From positions 149,709 through 213,708 of IMG/VR virus record IMGVR_UViG_3300045988_082442: a stretch of DNA of 64,000 nt. One strand, given 5' to 3'. Both the position numbers and the translations under genes were made by a program. This DNA comes from a virus. The notes under the pieces are model-generated. The model searched no databases and was not told the DNA's origin. It was given only the letters and a program-made list of their open reading frames with translations. Positions 8,750-59,361 of this stretch are shown here, one piece after another (position 1 is the first letter of the stretch; every line of letters begins with the position of its first letter).

Positions 8750-10318
8750 ATGGGTAATAATAGAGTAAAGCTAAATGACAAGATTTTGTCAGATGAGGAG
8801 TTAAAGAACGAGATAATAAAATATTATATAAATAATAATCATACAATACAAGAAACAGCAGATTACTTTGACGTGAATATAACAACCATTACTAGAAAGT
8901 TAAAGAAGTTCAAAATTAGAAAATCAAAAGAACTTATAGAAGAATCTAAAAAGATGAGAAATAGAGAAAAATATGGTGTAGATTACCCTCTACAATTAGA
9001 AGAGACTACAAGGAAAAGGGAGCAAACCAATTTAGAGAAATATGGTTATAAAAATCAATTTCAAAGACCAGATATAATAGAAGATATACAAGATGCTAGA
9101 AGTGAAAAGATGGACAAGATTGTATCTAAAACAAAAGATACTTGGAATAAAAGATACGGTGGGCATCCATTATCAAATAAAGGGGTACAGCTTAAAGCAA
9201 AACAAACTAACTTAAAAAGATATGGTGTAGAATATTCATCCCAAAATGATGATATAAAGAAGAGGAAGAAAATTTCCAGAATAAAATACTTTGAGGAAAA
9301 TTCAGAAGAATATAATCTGTTAAGAGATAAAGAGAGATTTAAACAAATAGTATTAAGTATTCCTTACGAAGAAAGAACATCAACATCATGTGCAGAAAAA
9401 ATGGGCATACATACAACTACATTTAATAAGTGGTTTAAGCTTCATAATCTTAAAGAAGAGATTTCAATGAACTTTCAAAGAAGTAGACAGGAACAAGAAA
9501 TAACAGAATATATAAAATCATTTTATACAGGTATTGTAATAAATAACTATAAGCTAGATATGGAACTAGACATTTATTTACCAGAATTAAAATTAGGAAT
9601 AGAGTTTAATGGAACATATTATCATGATGTGGAACATAAAGGAAAAGGTTACCATCAAGAGAAATCATTCTATTTTAAAGAAAAAGGAATATTTGTATAT
9701 CATATATATGAATGGGAATGGGAAGATGATATAAAAAGAGAAATAATAAAAAATAGTTTAAGAAGAATGATACTAAACGATAACAAAGTTATCTATGCAA
9801 GAAAATGTGAACTTAAAGAAGTAGGTTCATCTGAATCATCTAAATTCTTAAATCAATATCATATACAAGGTAATGTAAATGCAACTATAAGATATGGTTT
9901 ATATTATGAAGATACCCTTGTAGAGATAATGACATTTTCAAAAGCAAGATATACAGACGGATATGAAATAATAAGATTGTGTTCTAAATCAGATATAAAT
10001 GTAGTAGGTGGAACAGAAAGATTATTTAAGCATTTTATAGAACAATATAATCCTAGTAGAATTATCTCATATTGTAACATAGATAAGTTTAAGGGAACAA
10101 TATATGAGAAAGTAGGCATGAAGCTGGACAAGATAAATCCACCAAATTATAAATGGGTAAATTGTAATGATAATGATGTTAAGTCAAGATACCAATGTCA
10201 AAAGCATCTAATAAGGGAAGATGAAAATGATACTAGAACTGAATCAGAAATTATGAAATCAAGAGGATATATAAAAGTAGAAGACGCTGGGACTTATAGA
10301 TTTATATTGGAGAGATAA
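8750..10318 (+). CDS. free-standing homing-endonuclease-like protein, paralog 1 (HTH, KYG repeats, Vsr/PD-(D/E)XK-like core, conserved C-terminal domain)
   Basis: Repeated EKYGV/KRYGV modules; LDIYLPELKLGIEFNGTYYHD nuclease-like core; C-terminal IYARKCELKEV..FLNQYHIQG..VVGG shared with 57655..59361 and 62020..63012. Confidence 0.65.
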   Translation: MGNNRVKLNDKILSDEELKNEIIKYYINNNHTIQETADYFDVNITTITRKLKKFKIRKSKELIEESKKMRNREKYGVDYPLQLEETTRKREQTNLEKYGYKNQFQRPDIIEDIQDARSEKMDKIVSKTKDTWNKRYGGHPLSNKGVQLKAKQTNLKRYGVEYSSQNDDIKKRKKISRIKYFEENSEEYNLLRDKERFKQIVLSIPYEERTSTSCAEKMGIHTTTFNKWFKLHNLKEEISMNFQRSRQEQEITEYIKSFYTGIVINNYKLDMELDIYLPELKLGIEFNGTYYHDVEHKGKGYHQEKSFYFKEKGIFVYHIYEWEWEDDIKREIIKNSLRRMILNDNKVIYARKCELKEVGSSESSKFLNQYHIQGNVNATIRYGLYYEDTLVEIMTFSKARYTDGYEIIRLCSKSDINVVGGTERLFKHFIEQYNPSRIISYCNIDKFKGTIYEKVGMKLDKINPPNYKWVNCNDNDVKSRYQCQKHLIREDENDTRTESEIMKSRGYIKVEDAGTYRFILER

Positions 10319-17197: not shown

Positions 17198-18026
17198 ATG
17201 ATAAAAAGAAATAAGAGAAAATCAACAACAAACAGAAGATTTAAAGATACTAAAAGGAGTAGTCACCTGAGAAGGAACAATAAGTTTAGTGTAAAGAAAG
17301 GTTTTAAAAAGCCACATTTAAGAATAGACAGAATAATATTAGTTATAATGATTATAGTTTTTATAATATTAATACATAATCAATATAAGAAACAACATGA
17401 AACAGACAATACATTAAATAAAATGATAAATACTTTAGAAACAATACAGACAGAGCTAGAAGATATGACTGATAAACAAGTGCAATTAGAAGAGAAACAA
17501 AAAGAGTTAGAAGTATCAAAAGCTCAAAAGAAAGAAGAGAAAGCAAGATTAGCAAGGGAAGCAGAAGAAAAGGCTAGAATTGCTAAGGAAGAAGCTAGAA
17601 AAGCAGAAGAAGCTAGAAAAGCAGAAGAAGCTAAGAAACAAGAACAAATAAGAGTTGCCAGTACAAAACCAGTTACATCAAGAGGTGGAACAACAGTAAG
17701 GGAATCAAGCTCTAGTTCTAAATCAGGATTACAATCTTATGCACATGATTTATGTATAAATACTTATGGTTGGTCAGAAAATGATTATCAATGTTTAGTT
17801 AAATTATGGAATAGAGAATCAGGATGGAATCCAAATGCCCATAATAAATCATCAGGATCCCATGGTATTCCACAGTCATTACCAGCATCTAAGATGGCTA
17901 GTGAAGGTTCTGATTATTATACAAATGGAAAAACCCAGATACGCTGGGGATTACGGGTATATTAAAAATAGATATAGCAATCCTTCTAGTGCCTGGGCTC
18001 ACTCACAGCAGACAGGGTGGTATTAA
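17198..18026 (+). pseudogene. membrane-anchored lytic-transglycosylase-like cell-wall hydrolase; reading frame broken near 17946-17955
   Basis: TM helix, KAEEARKAEE coiled coil, ESGWNPNAHNKSSGSHGIPQ motif. The conserved C-terminal YIKNRYSNPSSAWAHSQQTGWY lies in another frame (ORF 17835..18026). Confidence 0.7.
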
Positions 18027-19146: not shown

Positions 19147-21063
19147 ATGGGGTTTAGAGATAGAATGCAAAACTTTATGGAAAGCACATTCAAAGTCAGA
19201 ATAATACCTAAACAAACACCAAGAGAAGGAATGGCTATTACATCTGAAAAGAACTCTTTACCAAACCAATTAGATGAAGCTGTTGAATCTGGAAAAAGGA
19301 TTGACCTATCTGGATTAAGAGATTTAATGTCATTAAAAACAGATAGAAATGAGCAATATAAAGCTTACGAAGAAATGGTTGCAGATGGACGTATAGGTGC
19401 AGCTGTTGAGATGTATGCTAACGATACAGTACAACAATCTCCAGAGGGTAAAGTTATTTGGGTAGAAAGCGATAATGCTGATGTAGCATCCTATGGAAAT
19501 AAACTATTAGAAGATTTAGGTGTTGCACAAAATCTTTGGAGTTGGGCATACTGTTTATGGTTATATGGTGACGTGTATTTAGAGTTATTTGAAAATACTT
19601 CTACATTAGGAAATAAACCAACATTATTGACAGAACCAGTAAATCATAATGCTAATTTCCAAAAACAAGTTCCTATTGAAGGAGCATATCTTGAAAGATA
19701 TGTGGAAAAGGTTCCAAACCCAGCAGATGTATATGACCTACAATTCAAAGGTAAGACATCTGGATTTGTTAAATCAAGAGAACCATTAACACCAACATAT
19801 AAAAATAGAATAAACACATATAATGTTACATCATCAACTGAAAAGATAGATATATTATCTCCTATGAAGTTTGTTCATATATGTTTATCACCTAATATTT
19901 CAAGATACCCAGAGAAATTTAGTATAGTACAAGAAACACCAGATAATAAGAATGTGCATACAACTGGTGGAGATGCAATAAATGAAAATTCAGTAGGTGG
20001 ATCTACTTATACTGTATTAAGAGGACAATCAATGTTAGAGAATGTATATGGACCATATCAAGCATTGAAACTAAAAGAAGATAGTATATTATTAGAAAGA
20101 ATAACAAAAGCTTCCATTACAAGAATTATACAAATAGAGCTAGGTGATATGCCAGAAAGTCAAAAAGACAGGGTATTAAGGGATTTAAAGGAACAAATAG
20201 AACAACAACTTCAAATGAATAAATTTACTGGTGATATAAATAGCAGAGCAAGTGCTAACCCATCAGAGAATATAATCTACACAACTACTAAAAATGGTAA
20301 GGGTGTAATTAATACAGTAAATATTGGTGGAGAAGCAGATTTAGGTAATATAGAAGATATTACACAATCTGAGAATAAACTATATGGTGCTTTACAAGCT
20401 AATAAAGCAGCTTTAGGTGCAGATATGGATGGTACTGGATTATCAAATGGTGGTTCATTAACAGAATTAAACTCAATATATGCTAGAAGAATAGTTAGAG
20501 GGCAAACAGCACTAACATCTGGAATAACTACTTTAATAAATATATTTGCATTAAAAGAAGGACTTGCAGTTACTCATGTAAATAACTTTAGAGTTAGAAT
20601 GGTTAAACCAGTAACATCAGAAGATACAAGAAGAGATGATTTATTATCTAATAAGATTAGAAATGTAAGTGATTTACTAAATCTATTAAATGATAAAGAT
20701 ATAATTGACTCAGTATCAAGATTAAAGATTATAGCTAACTTAATGGTTAACTACCTATCTCAACAAGATATTGCAGATGTATTAAATGAAATACTTGAAT
20801 CTCAAGAAGCAGAAGTTGAAGATACAGATAAGGGAGATGGTGATGATACATTTGATGATATTACAACACATGGGGGTTCTGGAAGTAGTTTAAGAGAACC
20901 ACCATCAGGAGGGGAAGCACCTAGTAAACCAAATAGCCCAGATTTAGATACTGAAACAGATACTGAAACAGAACCTAATACGCCAGATTTAGAATCTAAT
21001 GTAGGAGCAGGTTCTACTGATGATATAGACTTATCAGAAATAGAAGGTAAAGATTTATTATAG
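19147..21063 (+). CDS. portal protein, T4 gp20-like
   Basis: By memory of T4 gp20: YKAYEEMVADGRIGAAVEMYANDTV and LKLKEDSILLERITKASITRIIQIELGDMP parallel the gp20 TYRNLM..AVSEIVSDAI and [30 protein letters not shown]. Confidence 0.8.
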   Translation: MGFRDRMQNFMESTFKVRIIPKQTPREGMAITSEKNSLPNQLDEAVESGKRIDLSGLRDLMSLKTDRNEQYKAYEEMVADGRIGAAVEMYANDTVQQSPEGKVIWVESDNADVASYGNKLLEDLGVAQNLWSWAYCLWLYGDVYLELFENTSTLGNKPTLLTEPVNHNANFQKQVPIEGAYLERYVEKVPNPADVYDLQFKGKTSGFVKSREPLTPTYKNRINTYNVTSSTEKIDILSPMKFVHICLSPNISRYPEKFSIVQETPDNKNVHTTGGDAINENSVGGSTYTVLRGQSMLENVYGPYQALKLKEDSILLERITKASITRIIQIELGDMPESQKDRVLRDLKEQIEQQLQMNKFTGDINSRASANPSENIIYTTTKNGKGVINTVNIGGEADLGNIEDITQSENKLYGALQANKAALGADMDGTGLSNGGSLTELNSIYARRIVRGQTALTSGITTLINIFALKEGLAVTHVNNFRVRMVKPVTSEDTRRDDLLSNKIRNVSDLLNLLNDKDIIDSVSRLKIIANLMVNYLSQQDIADVLNEILESQEAEVEDTDKGDGDDTFDDITTHGGSGSSLREPPSGGEAPSKPNSPDLDTETDTETEPNTPDLESNVGAGSTDDIDLSEIEGKDLL

Positions 21064-55790: not shown

Positions 55791-55816
55791 TTAAAAATTG
55801 AATGGAGGAATTTATA

Positions 55817-56026
55817 ATGACAGGTAAAGCATTAGTAGAAGCAAATGCTAAATCAACAGTTGCTTCAAAATTTGAAAGCAGAATTAAATTAATAGAATCT
55901 GCAAGAAAAGCTGCTGGAAAACCAGCTATGTCTGCATATGAAAAAAATTATGTAGGACAATTATTTGAAAATGTTAGAAAAGGTAACTTATATAAAGAAG
56001 GATATACTCAAGTATCAAATGTTGCT
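55817..56026 (+). CDS. major capsid protein (T4 gp23-like), exon 1
   Basis: GGAGG RBS; ends at GCT 56024-56026, the proposed 5' splice site; an in-frame TAA follows immediately. Confidence 0.75.
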
Positions 56027-56372
56027 TAACTAATATTTAGTAATTTTCTAAATTCGGGTAACATTAAACACTGTGAATTGCTGGAACATCCTAAAGCTCA
56101 AAGTACCAAAGTGTGAAAATCTTTGAGATGTAACAATGGACAATCAGCAGCTGTTATTTGACAAATAAATGTCAAATATGCAGTTCAACGACTATCGAAA
56201 GTATAGACTAAGAGAAATACTTAGTTGAATAAATGAGTAGAGTACAACCTAAGTAGGTTGGAAGTGCAGTGCAACATATAAAGGTTAAAACAATATATGT
56301 TGAAGATATAGTCTAATCTTATATGAAAGTATAAGAGTTATAATGGAAACGATTATAGCGTAATGAATAATG
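56027..56372 (+). ncRNA. group I intron (IA2-like, td-like), ORF-less, 346 nt
   Basis: P1: exon AATGTTGCT 56018-56026 pairs with GGTAACATT 56057-56065, with the terminal U.G pair. P7: GACTAT 56190-56195 pairs with ATAGTC 56308-56313. AACGACTATC and GAAGATATAGTCT match remembered td-intron strings. P8 hairpin 56272-56302. P9 hairpin (6-nt TGAAAG loop) 56318-56335 plus a further 3' hairpin. Terminal G at 56372. Confidence 0.8.
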
Positions 56373-57542
56373 GGAATAAGAAAAGACTTATTTAATATGA
56401 CAACATTAGCTGTTCAAAACAGAGTATTACCAGAAGTAGTATCTGTTCAAGCTATGAGTTCAGCATTACAATATCTACCAATATTAGAATTTAAAGCAGG
56501 AGAAACAAAAGGACAAGTACAAGAAGGTATGATATTCAATAGTGGTGCTGGATACCAAGATATAGCTGATAGCCACTATGATGGAAAATATGTTGTAAAT
56601 GAAGTTTTAGCACCAGCTGGAACAACAGGTACAGTAGACATAGTTATATCAAGATTACCAATCAACGCTGGAACAATCAAAATCGTTGAAGGAACAAAAG
56701 TTGCAACAGATGACGGTAGCGGAAATATTACAGGTGATTTCACAGGTAAAATAGATTATACAACTGGTACAGGTACAATTACAGCTGCAGCTGCAGCTAC
56801 AGAAGACATCAAAATTTCTTATACTTATGCAAATGAAGAAATAAGAAATGGAGATAAAGGACCAGCTAAAGTTACATTAGGAATTACACCAGTTGAAATG
56901 AAAGCTGAAGAACATCAATTACAAGCTGTATATGCTTTATCAGCAGCATACAGACTAGACAAAGAATTTGGTGTATCTATGCCATTAGTATTTGAACAAC
57001 AAGTTGCTAATGAAATGAACAAAGAACAAGAAAGATTAGTATTCTCAGATATGTTTAACAATGCTCAAGGTGGAGCTGCAGTAGTATGGAGTTCAACACC
57101 AAGACCAGGTGTATCTGATAAAGACCATATTGATAGTTTACCAATAGCTGTAAACTTAGCTGCTGCTAAAATTTACCAAGCTACAGGTGGAAACTTAGGA
57201 GCAAGCTTTATACTAGCTGGTTCAAACGCTGGAGCTTACTTCGCTAAAACAACAGGATTCAATGCTGAAAATATGCCTTTAAATGGTGGAAGCTTCTATT
57301 TAGGAAAAATGGGTAACCTAGATGTATTCCAAGTACCAAGTTTAGCACCAAATGACTTCTTAATTGGAGCAAAAGGAAATGAATATTACAACGCAGGATA
57401 TGTTGTTGGGGACTACATGCCAATTACATTTACAGCCCCAGTATCTCTTGCAGATTTATCTACACAACAAGGTTGGTTATCAATCTATGCTAACAAAATT
57501 GTTAATGCTAAATTATATATCAGAGGAAGAATTACTGTTTAG
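56373..57542 (+). CDS. major capsid protein (T4 gp23-like), exon 2
   Basis: LFNMTTLAVQNRVLPEVVSVQAMS, EEHQLQAVYALSAAYRLDKEFG and the C-terminus parallel remembered gp23 segments; the frame joins exon 1 to give ...QVSNVA/GIRKDLF... Confidence 0.8.
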   Translation, partial: GIRKDLFNMTTLAVQNRVLPEVVSVQAMSSALQYLPILEFKAGETKGQVQEGMIFNSGAGYQDIADSHYDGKYVVNEVLAPAGTTGTVDIVISRLPINAGTIKIVEGTKVATDDGSGNITGDFTGKIDYTTGTGTITAAAAATEDIKISYTYANEEIRNGDKGPAKVTLGITPVEMKAEEHQLQAVYALSAAYRLDKEFGVSMPLVFEQQVANEMNKEQERLVFSDMFNNAQGGAAVVWSSTPRPGVSDKDHIDSLPIAVNLAAAKIYQATGGNLGASFILAGSNAGAYFAKTTGFNAENMPLNGGSFYLGKMGNLDVFQVPSLAPNDFLIGAKGNEYYNAGYVVGDYMPITFTAPVSLADLSTQQGWLSIYANKIVNAKLYIRGRITV

Positions 57543-57565
57543 TACCCTTTCAAAGATTAGAAATA

Positions 57566-57594
57566 AGAGATGTGAGAAATCACATCTCTTTTTG
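57566..57594 (+). terminator. rho-independent terminator after the capsid gene
   Basis: AAGAGATGTG / CACATCTCTT stem plus T5. Confidence 0.8.
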
Positions 57595-57603
57595 ATTTCA
57601 TGC

Positions 57604-57632
57604 TTGACCTATTACATAACCTATGGTATAAT
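57604..57632 (+). promoter_or_regulatory. sigA-type promoter TTGACC-17-TATAAT for endonuclease paralog 2
   Basis: Located just after capsid-gene terminator 57566-57594. Confidence 0.65.
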
Positions 57633-57654: not shown

Positions 57655-59361
57655 ATGATAATTAAATGTGCTAATTGTAATAAAGAATTTGAACCAAGTA
57701 AACAAATTCAAAATAGAATAAAAAAGGAACCAGACAAACCTAGGTTCTGTTCTCCTAAATGTAGAGCAGAATATACTGGTAAGAAAAGAAAAATAATAGA
57801 AGAGTATATATGCGATTATTGTGGTAAGAAATTTATATTATCTAGTGACCAAAGACATGATAAAGCAAAGAATCCTAATAATAAATACTTTTGTGGTAGA
57901 CAATGCTCTGGTAAGTATAATATGTCAATAGAAGATAATGTCATAAAAAGAAACAAAAACTCAGAACAAACAAAACTAAATAAGTATGGAGATGCCCATT
58001 TTAATAATCATGATAAAACTGTAAGGACATTACAAGATAAATATAATGTAGATAATGTCTTTCAACTTGATAGTATCAAAGAGTTATCAAAATCAACAAA
58101 GCTAGAAAGATATAATGATGCTAACTACAATAACAAAGAACAAATTAGTAAAACACTTTTAAATATGGATGCTGATAAGAAGAAAGAATGGGTAAGTAAG
58201 AGAAAGAAATCACAATGTGATACTATTCAAAACAGAACAGATGAGGAATGGGAAGTTATAAAGAATAAATTATCAGAAAGTAATGCAAGAGCATGGAGTA
58301 ATTTCACAGATGATGAAAAGAATAGTATTAGAAAGTCTATGTCTGATAGTCAAAAGAAAAGATGGGAAGAAATGCCTATTGAAAAGAAGCGAGAATTATT
58401 TAAGAAGTATAGAATATCAATGATGGATAGATATGGAACCATTTGTAACTTTACAAGAGAAGAAGTACAAGAGAAGTCAAGACTAAATAACGGACATACT
58501 ATATCAAAAACTAATATAAAGTTTAGGCAAAGAGTACTAGAAGAAACTGGTGTGAACTTTACACTAGAAAAAGATGGATTTGATTTAGTGAAAGATGATG
58601 TTGCAATAGATATAAACCCAACATTTACCCATAACTGTGCTTTTGGGTTTGCATATTTAACAGGTAGAACTACTGAGAATAAACCCATTGCTGAAGATTA
58701 TCACTATAAAAGATATTTAAAGGCATCAGAACTAGGATACCATCTAATAAATGTGTGGGATTGGGACGATATAAATAAAATACTAGATATGATAAGAGAT
58801 AAGGAAACATTATATGCTAGAAAGTTACATATAAAAGAAGTATCTACAAAAGATACAGCTGAATTTTTAAATAATTATCATATACAAAATACATGTAAGG
58901 GACAAACTGTCAGATTAGGTTTATATATGGATGATGAACTTGTAGAACTAATGACATTTGGTAAACCAAGATATAATAAGAACTATGAATGGGAATTACT
59001 TAGATTATGTACTAAACCAAATTATATAGTAGTAGGTGGTGCTGAAAAACTATTTAATTGTTTTGTATCTAGCTATGAACCTAACTCTATTATAAGTTAT
59101 TGTGATTTATCTAAGTTTACTGGTAATGTTTACAAGAGATTAGGATTTACACAAAATAATAAAATATTTCCTAGTAAGCATTGGTCAAAAGGAAGTGAGC
59201 ATATTACTGATAACTTATTAAGACAAAGAGGTTATGACCAATTATTTAATGCTAATTATGGTAAAGGTACTTCTAATGAAGAATTAATGATTTTAAATGG
59301 TTGGTTACCAGTATATGATTGTGGTCAAGCAAGTTATACCTGGACAAATTCAAAGGGGTAA
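57655..59361 (+). CDS. free-standing homing-endonuclease-like protein, paralog 2 (two Zn ribbons, KYG repeats, nuclease core, C-terminal domain)
   Basis: CANC...CSPKC, CDYC...CGRQC; NKYGDAHFNN, DKYNVDNVFQ; LYARKLHIKEV..FLNNYHIQN..VVGG; own promoter 57604-57632. Confidence 0.65.
   Translation: MIIKCANCNKEFEPSKQIQNRIKKEPDKPRFCSPKCRAEYTGKKRKIIEEYICDYCGKKFILSSDQRHDKAKNPNNKYFCGRQCSGKYNMSIEDNVIKRNKNSEQTKLNKYGDAHFNNHDKTVRTLQDKYNVDNVFQLDSIKELSKSTKLERYNDANYNNKEQISKTLLNMDADKKKEWVSKRKKSQCDTIQNRTDEEWEVIKNKLSESNARAWSNFTDDEKNSIRKSMSDSQKKRWEEMPIEKKRELFKKYRISMMDRYGTICNFTREEVQEKSRLNNGHTISKTNIKFRQRVLEETGVNFTLEKDGFDLVKDDVAIDINPTFTHNCAFGFAYLTGRTTENKPIAEDYHYKRYLKASELGYHLINVWDWDDINKILDMIRDKETLYARKLHIKEVSTKDTAEFLNNYHIQNTCKGQTVRLGLYMDDELVELMTFGKPRYNKNYEWELLRLCTKPNYIVVGGAEKLFNCFVSSYEPNSIISYCDLSKFTGNVYKRLGFTQNNKIFPSKHWSKGSEHITDNLLRQRGYDQLFNANYGKGTSNEELMILNGWLPVYDCGQASYTWTNSKG

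Follow-up and report, generated by a model that had tools for sequence, protein, structure and literature searches.

A group I intron stripped of its homing endonuclease gene in a gp23-type capsid gene of a large low-GC phage

The IMG/VR virus record IMGVR_UViG_3300045988_082442 includes, within the stretch of 64,000 nucleotides (nt) analysed here (positions 149,709 to 213,708 of the record; hereafter, the window), a capsid gene that is interrupted by a 346-nt group I intron of subgroup IA (56027..56372). Exon 1 of this gene (55817..56026) consists of 70 codons, the last one being GCT (56024-56026), with a ribosome-binding site, GGAGGA (55804-55809), ahead of the ATG at 55817, and exon 2 (56373..57542) comprises 389 codons followed by a TAG stop codon (57540-57542); all these features, as well as the intron elements described below, are on the plus strand. 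The intron starts with an in-frame stop codon, TAA (56027-56029), which terminates the frame opened at 55817, and ends with the omega-G (G56372), after which the same frame resumes at 56373. An earlier reading of this sequence (hereafter, the original prediction) had described this arrangement and an intervening gap devoid of open reading frames (ORFs), and this is what we found, with no plus-strand ORF of at least 30 amino acids (aa) in the 346 nt. Splicing would yield a 459-aa capsid protein with the junction ...VSNVA|GIRKD..., bridged by the tryptic peptide EGYTQVSNVAGIR. Very probably, the insertion is a self-splicing intron that arose by deletion from a mobile intron residing in a gp23-type capsid gene.

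The window, with a G+C content of about 30%, covers the structural region of a large low-GC phage, and no tRNA genes were detected in it. The predicted spliced protein matches the Pfam family Gp23 (PF07068) over residues 69-443 with 59.4 bits (cut-off, 24.4) and the PHROG family phrog_138, 'major head protein', in agreement with the originally suggested gp23-type affiliation; a PDB search with the single capsid protein sequence gave no match. Immediately 5' of the capsid gene is a gene for a prohead protease of the T4 type (phrog_207; in relatives, Peptidase_S77), and the window also contains a portal gene (19147-21063). By these matches, the capsid protein is of the gp23 type and is encoded in a T4-type head module. 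Related capsid genes are found on 200-220-kb contigs from animal-gut metagenomes, one of which was binned in a metagenome-assembled genome of 'uncultured Bacilli'. Exon 1 (70 aa) corresponds almost exactly to the region N-terminal to the Gp23 match, which starts at residue 69. In T4 gp23, about 65 N-terminal residues are removed by the prohead protease, and the intron may be positioned near the boundary between the propeptide and the mature protein.

Natural alleles without the intron define the splice junction to the base. These alleles read ...AATGTTGCA|GGAATAAGA... across the site, and the contigs L001 and L002, which encode the protein P0001, carry an uninterrupted capsid gene, ...TCAAATGTTGCA|GGAATAAGAAAAGAC..., that is collinear with the window at 56026|56373, exactly the join proposed in the original prediction; exon 1 is collinear with residues 1-70 of these alleles. 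Searching a protein collection with the predicted spliced product retrieved full-length proteins of 458-461 aa at 85-100% identity (P0001-P0005) together with proteins of 390-391 aa that start with MGIRKD... (P0006-P0013). P0001 and the predicted spliced protein agree at 458 of the 459 residues, the sole difference being T157S. The coding sequence in L001 and L002 is 98% identical to that in the window, and 27 of the 28 nucleotide differences are synonymous; thus, both exons evolve as one protein-coding gene under purifying selection, which we take as strong, though indirect, evidence for removal of the intron. Codon 70 ends in A (GCA or GGA) in all 12 intron-less alleles examined and in T, corresponding to the U needed at the splice site, in all intron-bearing alleles. 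Because the last exon-1 base is A rather than T, the intron-less contigs are not spliced complementary DNA (cDNA) of the window allele; a spliced junction with T at position -1, a possible cDNA, was not found in JGI metagenome contigs or IMG/VR.

The covariance search of 55950-56450 suggested in the original prediction identified the Rfam family RF00028 (Intron_gpI) with 77 bits, above the cut-off of 50 (E 6e-20), along the full model (positions 1-253 of 253). The minimum-energy fold of the intron has a z-score of -4.1 and yields P1, P3, P4, P5/P5a, P6, P7.1, P7.2, P8, P9 and P9.1. Introns at this site fall into three lineages that share one codon boundary, namely, the window type (the window and L009-L014), the L003 type and the L027 type. 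The L003-type intron is 75-81% identical to the window intron, with 85% identity between the exons, and the capsid protein of the L027 phage is 49% identical to that of the window, with the same insertion site and ORF family.

P1 is formed by the end of exon 1 (AATGTTGCT, 56018-56026) and the internal guide sequence (GGTAACATT, 56057-56065), as had been predicted from the terminal U-G pair; it includes nine pairs, closes a 30-nt loop and ends with the U56026-G56057 wobble. In the window and L003 types, an additional hairpin is present within the P1 loop (56035-56040 with 56048-56053). Across the three lineages, two-sided changes occur at four of the nine P1 pairs. In the window, AAUGUUGCU pairs with GGUAACAUU; in the L003 type, a synonymous change from GUU to GUG in the exon is matched by a change from A to C in the guide; and in L027, the exon sequence ACGGGU is matched by GCUCGU in the guide, whereas the wobble at the splice site is retained in all three.

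The core, P3 through P8 with the P3/P7 pseudoknot, can be drawn with every helix in place, and P3, P5, P5a, P6 and P8 covary. P3 pairs 56069-56074 with 56266-56271 (four of six pairs compensatory), P4 pairs 56079-56084 with 56144-56149, P5 pairs 56089-56091 with 56138-56140 (one of three) and P5a pairs 56097-56103 with 56121-56127 (six of seven). P6 is a hairpin (56151-56163 with 56170-56183) capped by the hexaloop AAUAAA. It is followed by J6/7 (56184-56189), which together with J8/7 (56303-56307) belongs to the catalytic core, and by the 5' strand of P7, GACTAT (56190-56195), which pairs with ATAGTC (56308-56313). The presence of P7.1 (56206-56212 with 56220-56226) and P7.2 (56245-56250 with 56255-56260) between P7 and P3' is a trait of subgroup IA. 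P8 (56272-56280 with 56294-56302) precedes J8/7, and the 3' part of the intron consists of two hairpins, P9 (56317-56324 with 56329-56336) and P9.1 (56337-56344 with 56352-56359; seven of eight pairs compensatory), whose loops, UGAAAG and GGAAACG, respectively, each contain a GAAA tetraloop, and a 13-nt tail that ends in AAUG at G56372. P7, P8 (56272-56302), the two 3' hairpins (56317-56336 and 56337-56359) and the terminal G are all located where the original prediction had placed them.

With this architecture, the last bases of exon 1 would pair with the guide sequence to form P1, free guanosine bound in P7 would attack after U56026, which is held in the wobble with G56057, and G56372 would next occupy the guanosine site, whereupon the exons would be ligated to encode the 459-aa protein.

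Default MAFFT misaligned P1 of L027 when applied to the three lineages, so a hand-built, N-padded alignment, from which the ORF-containing loop was cut out, was used instead. In this alignment, 98.2% of the 273 cells are paired and 41 of the 93 pairs are compensatory, compared with 3-7 compensatory pairs in slid controls, where the partners were moved by 1-3 columns; these counts come from an alignment fitted to the structure and are biased toward it. An unfitted test was therefore added, in which 20 sequences of the wider core family (see below), taken from IMG/VR, were aligned by MAFFT alone. In these 20 sequences, P7.1, P7.2 and P8 covary at 22 of 22 pairs, that is, at every pair of the three helices, with 142 two-sided cells against 13-30 in the slid controls.

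Together with the bias of the hand-fitted alignment, several observations weigh against the case for a self-splicing intron. First, P4, P7 and P9 are invariant in the alignments and never vary, so covariation neither backs nor contradicts these helices. Second, P2 is absent, with only AAA between the end of the guide sequence (56065) and the start of P3 (56069); the L003 and L027 introns likewise lack P2. Third, P10 is weak: the originally proposed strand ATTC (56052-56055) can indeed form four pairs with GAAT of exon 2 (56374-56377), but this candidate, drawn from the sequence only, involves a one-base offset, shows no covariation and is reduced to about two pairs in L027. Fourth, the intron was missed by Rfam cmscan runs on the 64-kb window, both at the gathering threshold and with E-values of up to 0.01, and on a piece of 12.8 kb. 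The program reports it only on the 501-nt input, and the silence on long inputs is an effect of the speed filters in AT-rich sequence. Finally, splicing itself is predicted from the fold.

Given that long Rfam scans are silent on a true intron, negative scans of AT-rich phage DNA are not evidence of absence, and introns in low-GC gut phages are probably under-counted, since standard scans of long AT-rich sequences miss introns of this kind. Such scans likewise cannot exclude other introns, so the window was searched with two core motifs, allowing at most three mismatches, and with our own core covariance model, run with filters off. The capsid intron scored 144.5 bits with this model and the next match in the window 13 bits; neither search found further copies of the intron core in the 64 kb.

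If the insertion did not splice, the capsid gene would be dead or would give rise to two polypeptides, one of 70 aa and one of 390 aa starting at ATG 56370, for which the NrdA protein of Aeromonas phage Aeh1, split by mobE, offers a precedent. The last three bases of the intron (56370-56372) are indeed AUG, in frame with exon 2, and gene callers divide the capsid gene into a 70-75-aa ORF and a 390-aa ORF that starts with this codon; furthermore, exon 1 is nearly all N-terminal to the Gp23 match. However, there is no Shine-Dalgarno sequence upstream of ATG 56370, and the terminal AUG is retained in all three intron lineages and in the T4 td intron, where the intron also ends in AAUG, so this codon is a feature of the intron. 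Moreover, a complete ribozyme is preserved by compensatory changes in three lineages, the guide sequence follows exon changes, which would matter only if P1 is used, and exon 1 differs from that of the intron-less allele by synonymous changes only. We consider the lack of splicing extremely unlikely. The 390-aa 'capsid' calls (P0006-P0013) result from the in-frame AUG at the intron end, and this truncated form already sits in public protein clusters.

The introns of L003-L008, L014 and L027 are longer, 1212-1226 nt, and each contains an ORF of 271-274 aa. The L014 intron corresponds to the window intron with 868 additional nt between two copies of ATAAAT in the P6 loop, the first 144 nt of the two introns being identical and the last 208 nt differing by a single mismatch. 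In the window, ATAAAT (56165-56170) remains within P6 as the deletion scar, and the last 14 codons and the stop codon of the ORF persist as a homing-endonuclease remnant (KCQICSSTTIESID and the stop; 56167..56211) that overlaps the 3' strand of P6, J6/7, the 5' strand of P7 and the start of P7.1. A tblastn search of the 64-kb window with the L014 ORF detected this remnant and no other homologue. In the ORF-bearing introns, a long-range P6 helix that covaries loops the ORF out, and the deletion took exactly this ORF-holding loop, leaving the hexaloop. By this comparison, the window intron lacks an ORF because the endonuclease gene was cleanly deleted, and it is thus an endonuclease-deletion derivative. 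A match to the deletion junction at one IMG/VR locus (L290) was discarded, being a 27-nt AT-rich stretch and not the intron.

The ORF of the relatives (L014, L003 and L027) matches the homing endonuclease family phrog_314 with E-values from 4e-27, obtained for the 273-aa product of L014, to 7e-33. It carries a GYIY...YIG motif and shows a weak match to I-TevI, with 25% identity over 102 aa of the catalytic domain; a PDB search with the single L014 endonuclease sequence gave no match. The Pfam scores for GIY-YIG/SegE fall just under the cut-offs (21.3 versus 22.6 and 22.1 versus 25), which counts against derivation from an intron with an endonuclease of this type.

In the ORF-bearing introns (L014:2410-2450, L003:4905-4950 and L027:1860-1905), the 5' strand of P6 can also form a local hairpin with the bases immediately downstream. 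The pairs, CUGUUAUUU/AAAUAACAG, CCAUUAU/AUAAUGG and ACAUUUAUA/UAUAAAUGU, covary across the three lineages, and the hairpin is followed by the conserved GGACAGGGAG. This local hairpin, which is missing from the window copy, competes with the long-range P6 and could tie folding to endonuclease expression.

Different states of the site coexist among capsid genes with 97-99% coding identity: L017 is empty, L014 contains the intron with the endonuclease, and L009 contains the intron without it. The coding sequences of L014 and L017, with and without the intron, are 98.9% identical, and those of the window, where the intron lacks the endonuclease, and the empty L001 are 98% identical. In contrast to the exons, which are only 90.5-91.5% identical, the intron is the same at 346 of 346 positions in the window and L009-L012. 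Since the exons have diverged less than the intron between the window and L003 types, this identity points to recent lateral transfer rather than slow evolution. The site, then, shows presence/absence polymorphism with the intron more alike than its flanks, and a homing endonuclease is encoded not by the window copy but by its sister copies (L014, L003 and L027). Within the first 469 coding nt, the window and L001 differ at six positions, all of them between -43 and +24 of the insertion site, a pattern that resembles a co-conversion tract and is suggestive only; the upstream three of these changes (coding positions 168-177) match no sampled donor, a further point against the proposed history.

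Three contigs stop inside the intron just 5' of exon 2 (L015:1-68, L016:1-162 and L013:1-67). Assembly probably broke at these points because alleles with the endonuclease gene and alleles lacking it coexisted in one sample.

The likely history of the window copy can be outlined as follows. An ancestral mobile intron with a 271-274-aa GIY-YIG-type homing endonuclease in the P6 loop would have entered capsid alleles that read GCA|GGA at the site; the window copy then lost the 868 nt between the ATAAAT repeats and, with them, the endonuclease gene, leaving a compact, intact ribozyme. Such a copy cannot home by itself and probably spreads with the aid of an endonuclease acting in trans or by ordinary recombination. 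Here, we infer both the activity of the endonuclease and the transfer route of the endonuclease-less copy. The relatives form a natural series at a single site of an essential late gene, from the empty site to the intron with the endonuclease to the microhomology deletion, and this series, with base-level evidence on the splice site and the strict A/T polymorphism, is useful for the study of the homing cycle and of possible mobilisation in trans.

The identical 346-nt copies share the deletion junction and a G at intron position 338, in two capsid lineages that are about 9% apart, a distribution that suggests continued spread of the endonuclease-less intron via mobilisation in trans, which we consider possible but somewhat doubtful. 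The nuclease involved could come from a phage infecting the same cell, as the GIY-YIG enzyme encoded by a sister intron, or could be free-standing, for example, the product of the neighbouring phrog_3339 gene. The main alternative to spread in trans is that the same microhomology deletion arose repeatedly after separate homing events. With ongoing spread, every stage of the homing cycle would be represented simultaneously in the capsid gene of this population.

The neighbouring gene is located beyond a terminator-like hairpin with a T run 3' of the capsid gene (57565..57590). It encodes a free-standing 568-aa protein (57655..59361) that matches phrog_3339, 'homing endonuclease' (E 3e-55), and is preceded by a near-consensus sigma-70-like promoter (57604-57632; TTGACC, a 17-nt spacer and TATAAT with an upstream TG). 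A second member of this family, of 522 aa (8750-10318; E 5e-103), is encoded by a gene about 70% identical at the DNA level to part of the first. Relative to L001, the segment 57598-58606, which takes in the 5' half of the downstream gene, is replaced by L009/L017-like sequence, marking a recombination boundary. In collaborative homing, a concept documented for F-CphI and the psbA intron of cyanophage S-PM2 (PMC3984707), the product of the downstream gene would cut intron-less capsid alleles at the site and so mobilise the ORF-less intron. The family assignment of this putative nuclease, its own promoter after the capsid terminator, the variability of the gene among relatives at a recombination boundary and the occurrence of the identical ORF-less intron in diverged backgrounds are all compatible with such a role. 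Nevertheless, the gene is also found 3' of the intron-less capsid genes of L001 and L017 and is missing beside the intron-bearing alleles of L015 and L016, so its presence does not track the intron; its product has only weak zinc-finger and DUF7487 matches in Pfam, and the site already has a dedicated, intron-encoded endonuclease. Collaborative homing by this gene is unsupported by the distribution of the gene, and we rejected it as improbable.

The original prediction also held that capsid production is linked to ribozyme activity by the intron, which is true by construction, whereas nothing found here suggests a regulatory role. Retention of the intron because splicing adaptively regulates the timing or amount of capsid protein, as opposed to its persistence as a selfish passenger, would fit a highly expressed late gene, and phage introns have been reported to splice in a condition-dependent manner (cited in PMC10914365). 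Close relatives, however, live without the intron (L001, with 98% coding identity), and the intron-less clusters have more members; the presence of the intron is polymorphic within lineages, and the endonuclease in relatives, along with the occurrence of the core family in many unrelated phage genes, is the signature of a selfish element. We find such regulation highly unlikely and favour the selfish, self-splicing intron with a deleted endonuclease gene.

Several of the related capsid genes require a +1 frame change to be read through. In L026:4940-4955 (88% aa identity) and L028:3952-3967 (52%), AGA CCA CGG AGT stands opposite AGA CCA GGT GTA of the window (~57105-57116), and in L029:4312-4325, CAA CAA CGG TTG stands opposite CAA CAA GGT TGG (~57474-57485); one extra C creates an in-frame CGG in each of the three. 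The same truncations are found in many protein clusters (P0014, P0100-P0107 and P0073-P0085). These sequences in L026, L028 and L029 may reflect programmed +1 frameshifting at CGG as a rare codon or, alternatively, a capsid gene that is split. In the window, 34 long ORFs (17,326 codons) contain 9 CGT, 1 CGC, 5 CGA and 1 CGG, compared with 466 AGA, and the only in-frame CGG, at 17954, is four codons ahead of a stop. This near-absence of CGN codons is consistent with a host that reads CGG very slowly or not at all.

Among known introns, that of the T4 td gene, a subgroup IA2 intron encoding I-TevI, provides a close point of reference, in accord with the 'td-like' label of the original prediction. 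The J6/7-P7 sequence AACGACTATC is identical in both, and the J8/7-P7' sequence, GAAGATATAGTCT in the window and GGAGATATAGTCT in td, differs by one base; of the three strings likened to td in that prediction, these two are homologous core elements, and the third, CGAAAGTATAGAC, has two mismatches and is a positional coincidence, being located in td at J7.2/3 to P3', a non-homologous position. Both introns have P7.1 and P7.2 between P7 and P3', a stop codon directly after the 5' splice site and an AAUG end, and in the relatives of the window intron, as in td, a loop projecting from P6 holds the GIY-YIG-type ORF, the 3' end of which extends into the core. In contrast to td, which resides in the thymidylate synthase gene, the window intron is inserted in a capsid gene, lacks P2, contains a hairpin inside the P1 loop and has lost the ORF, and the endonuclease of its relatives is distant from I-TevI, as noted above. 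BLASTN of the intron region gave no match to T4. By its architecture and td-type core sequences, the window intron is assigned to subgroup IA, at a level above the finer IA1/IA2/IA3 subclasses.

The BLASTN matches of the intron region were confined to intron cores of Staphylococcus, Bacillus PBS1, Lak and Thomasclavelia phages, with 72-77% identity over the core. The introns of Staphylococcus Twort/K-like phages, PBS1, Lak and Thomasclavelia phages and a large family in IMG/VR have in common the core GTTCAACGACTATCGAAA ... GAAGATATAGTCTAATC, and for each of its two motifs, IMG/VR contains more than 120 exact matches; a single contig can carry as many as five related copies. In this wider core family, the order of elements is the same (P7.1, GAGUAGAGUA, P7.2, P3' and P8 with a GGUAAYAGA loop), whereas the host genes and insertion sites are different and the peripheral elements, namely, the P1 loop, P5a, P6 and P9.1, are specific to the capsid-site lineage. 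By these core sequences, the ribozyme is a member of a very common phage intron family. Five IMG/VR contigs (L257, L092, L046, L125 and L099) carry 3-5 related intron cores within a few kb and so come from intron-rich phages, in contrast to the window, which carries one.

Capsid-gene introns are already documented, so the original description of such an insertion in an essential late structural gene as uncommon is fair but has precedents. In mycobacteriophage LittleE, splicing of the capsid-gene intron was shown by reverse transcription PCR and N-terminal sequencing (Pope et al. 2013, PMC3706429), and as in the window, exon 1 ends in U and the intron in G; phage BAKA contains a related, ORF-less copy (PMC3706429). 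Unlike the window phage, LittleE is a temperate siphovirus of actinobacteria, and its 819-bp intron, with a LAGLIDADG-like ORF on the opposite strand, was termed only 'most likely group I' (PMC3706429) and is unrelated in sequence to that of the window. In Bacillus phage SP-15 (KT624200, SP15_032-034), a gp23-type capsid gene, whose product is 28% identical to the window protein, is annotated in two joined pieces that flank an endonuclease ORF. There, the insertion site is a different one, far downstream in the gene, the endonuclease belongs to another family, Phage_endo_I, and the interruption is known from annotation.

A phage group I intron without a working endonuclease that can be moved by a nuclease encoded elsewhere also has a counterpart in T4, where the nrdB intron, with its defunct I-TevIII, is mobilised in trans by mobE (PMC2790892). 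Mobilisation of the window intron in trans differs in that it is suggested by identical introns in diverged backgrounds, with candidate nucleases only. Gut jumbo phages have many introns in essential genes (PMC12880540). The window intron is a well-documented new example of a known selfish element that involves no new mechanism and leaves the known workings of such elements unchanged.

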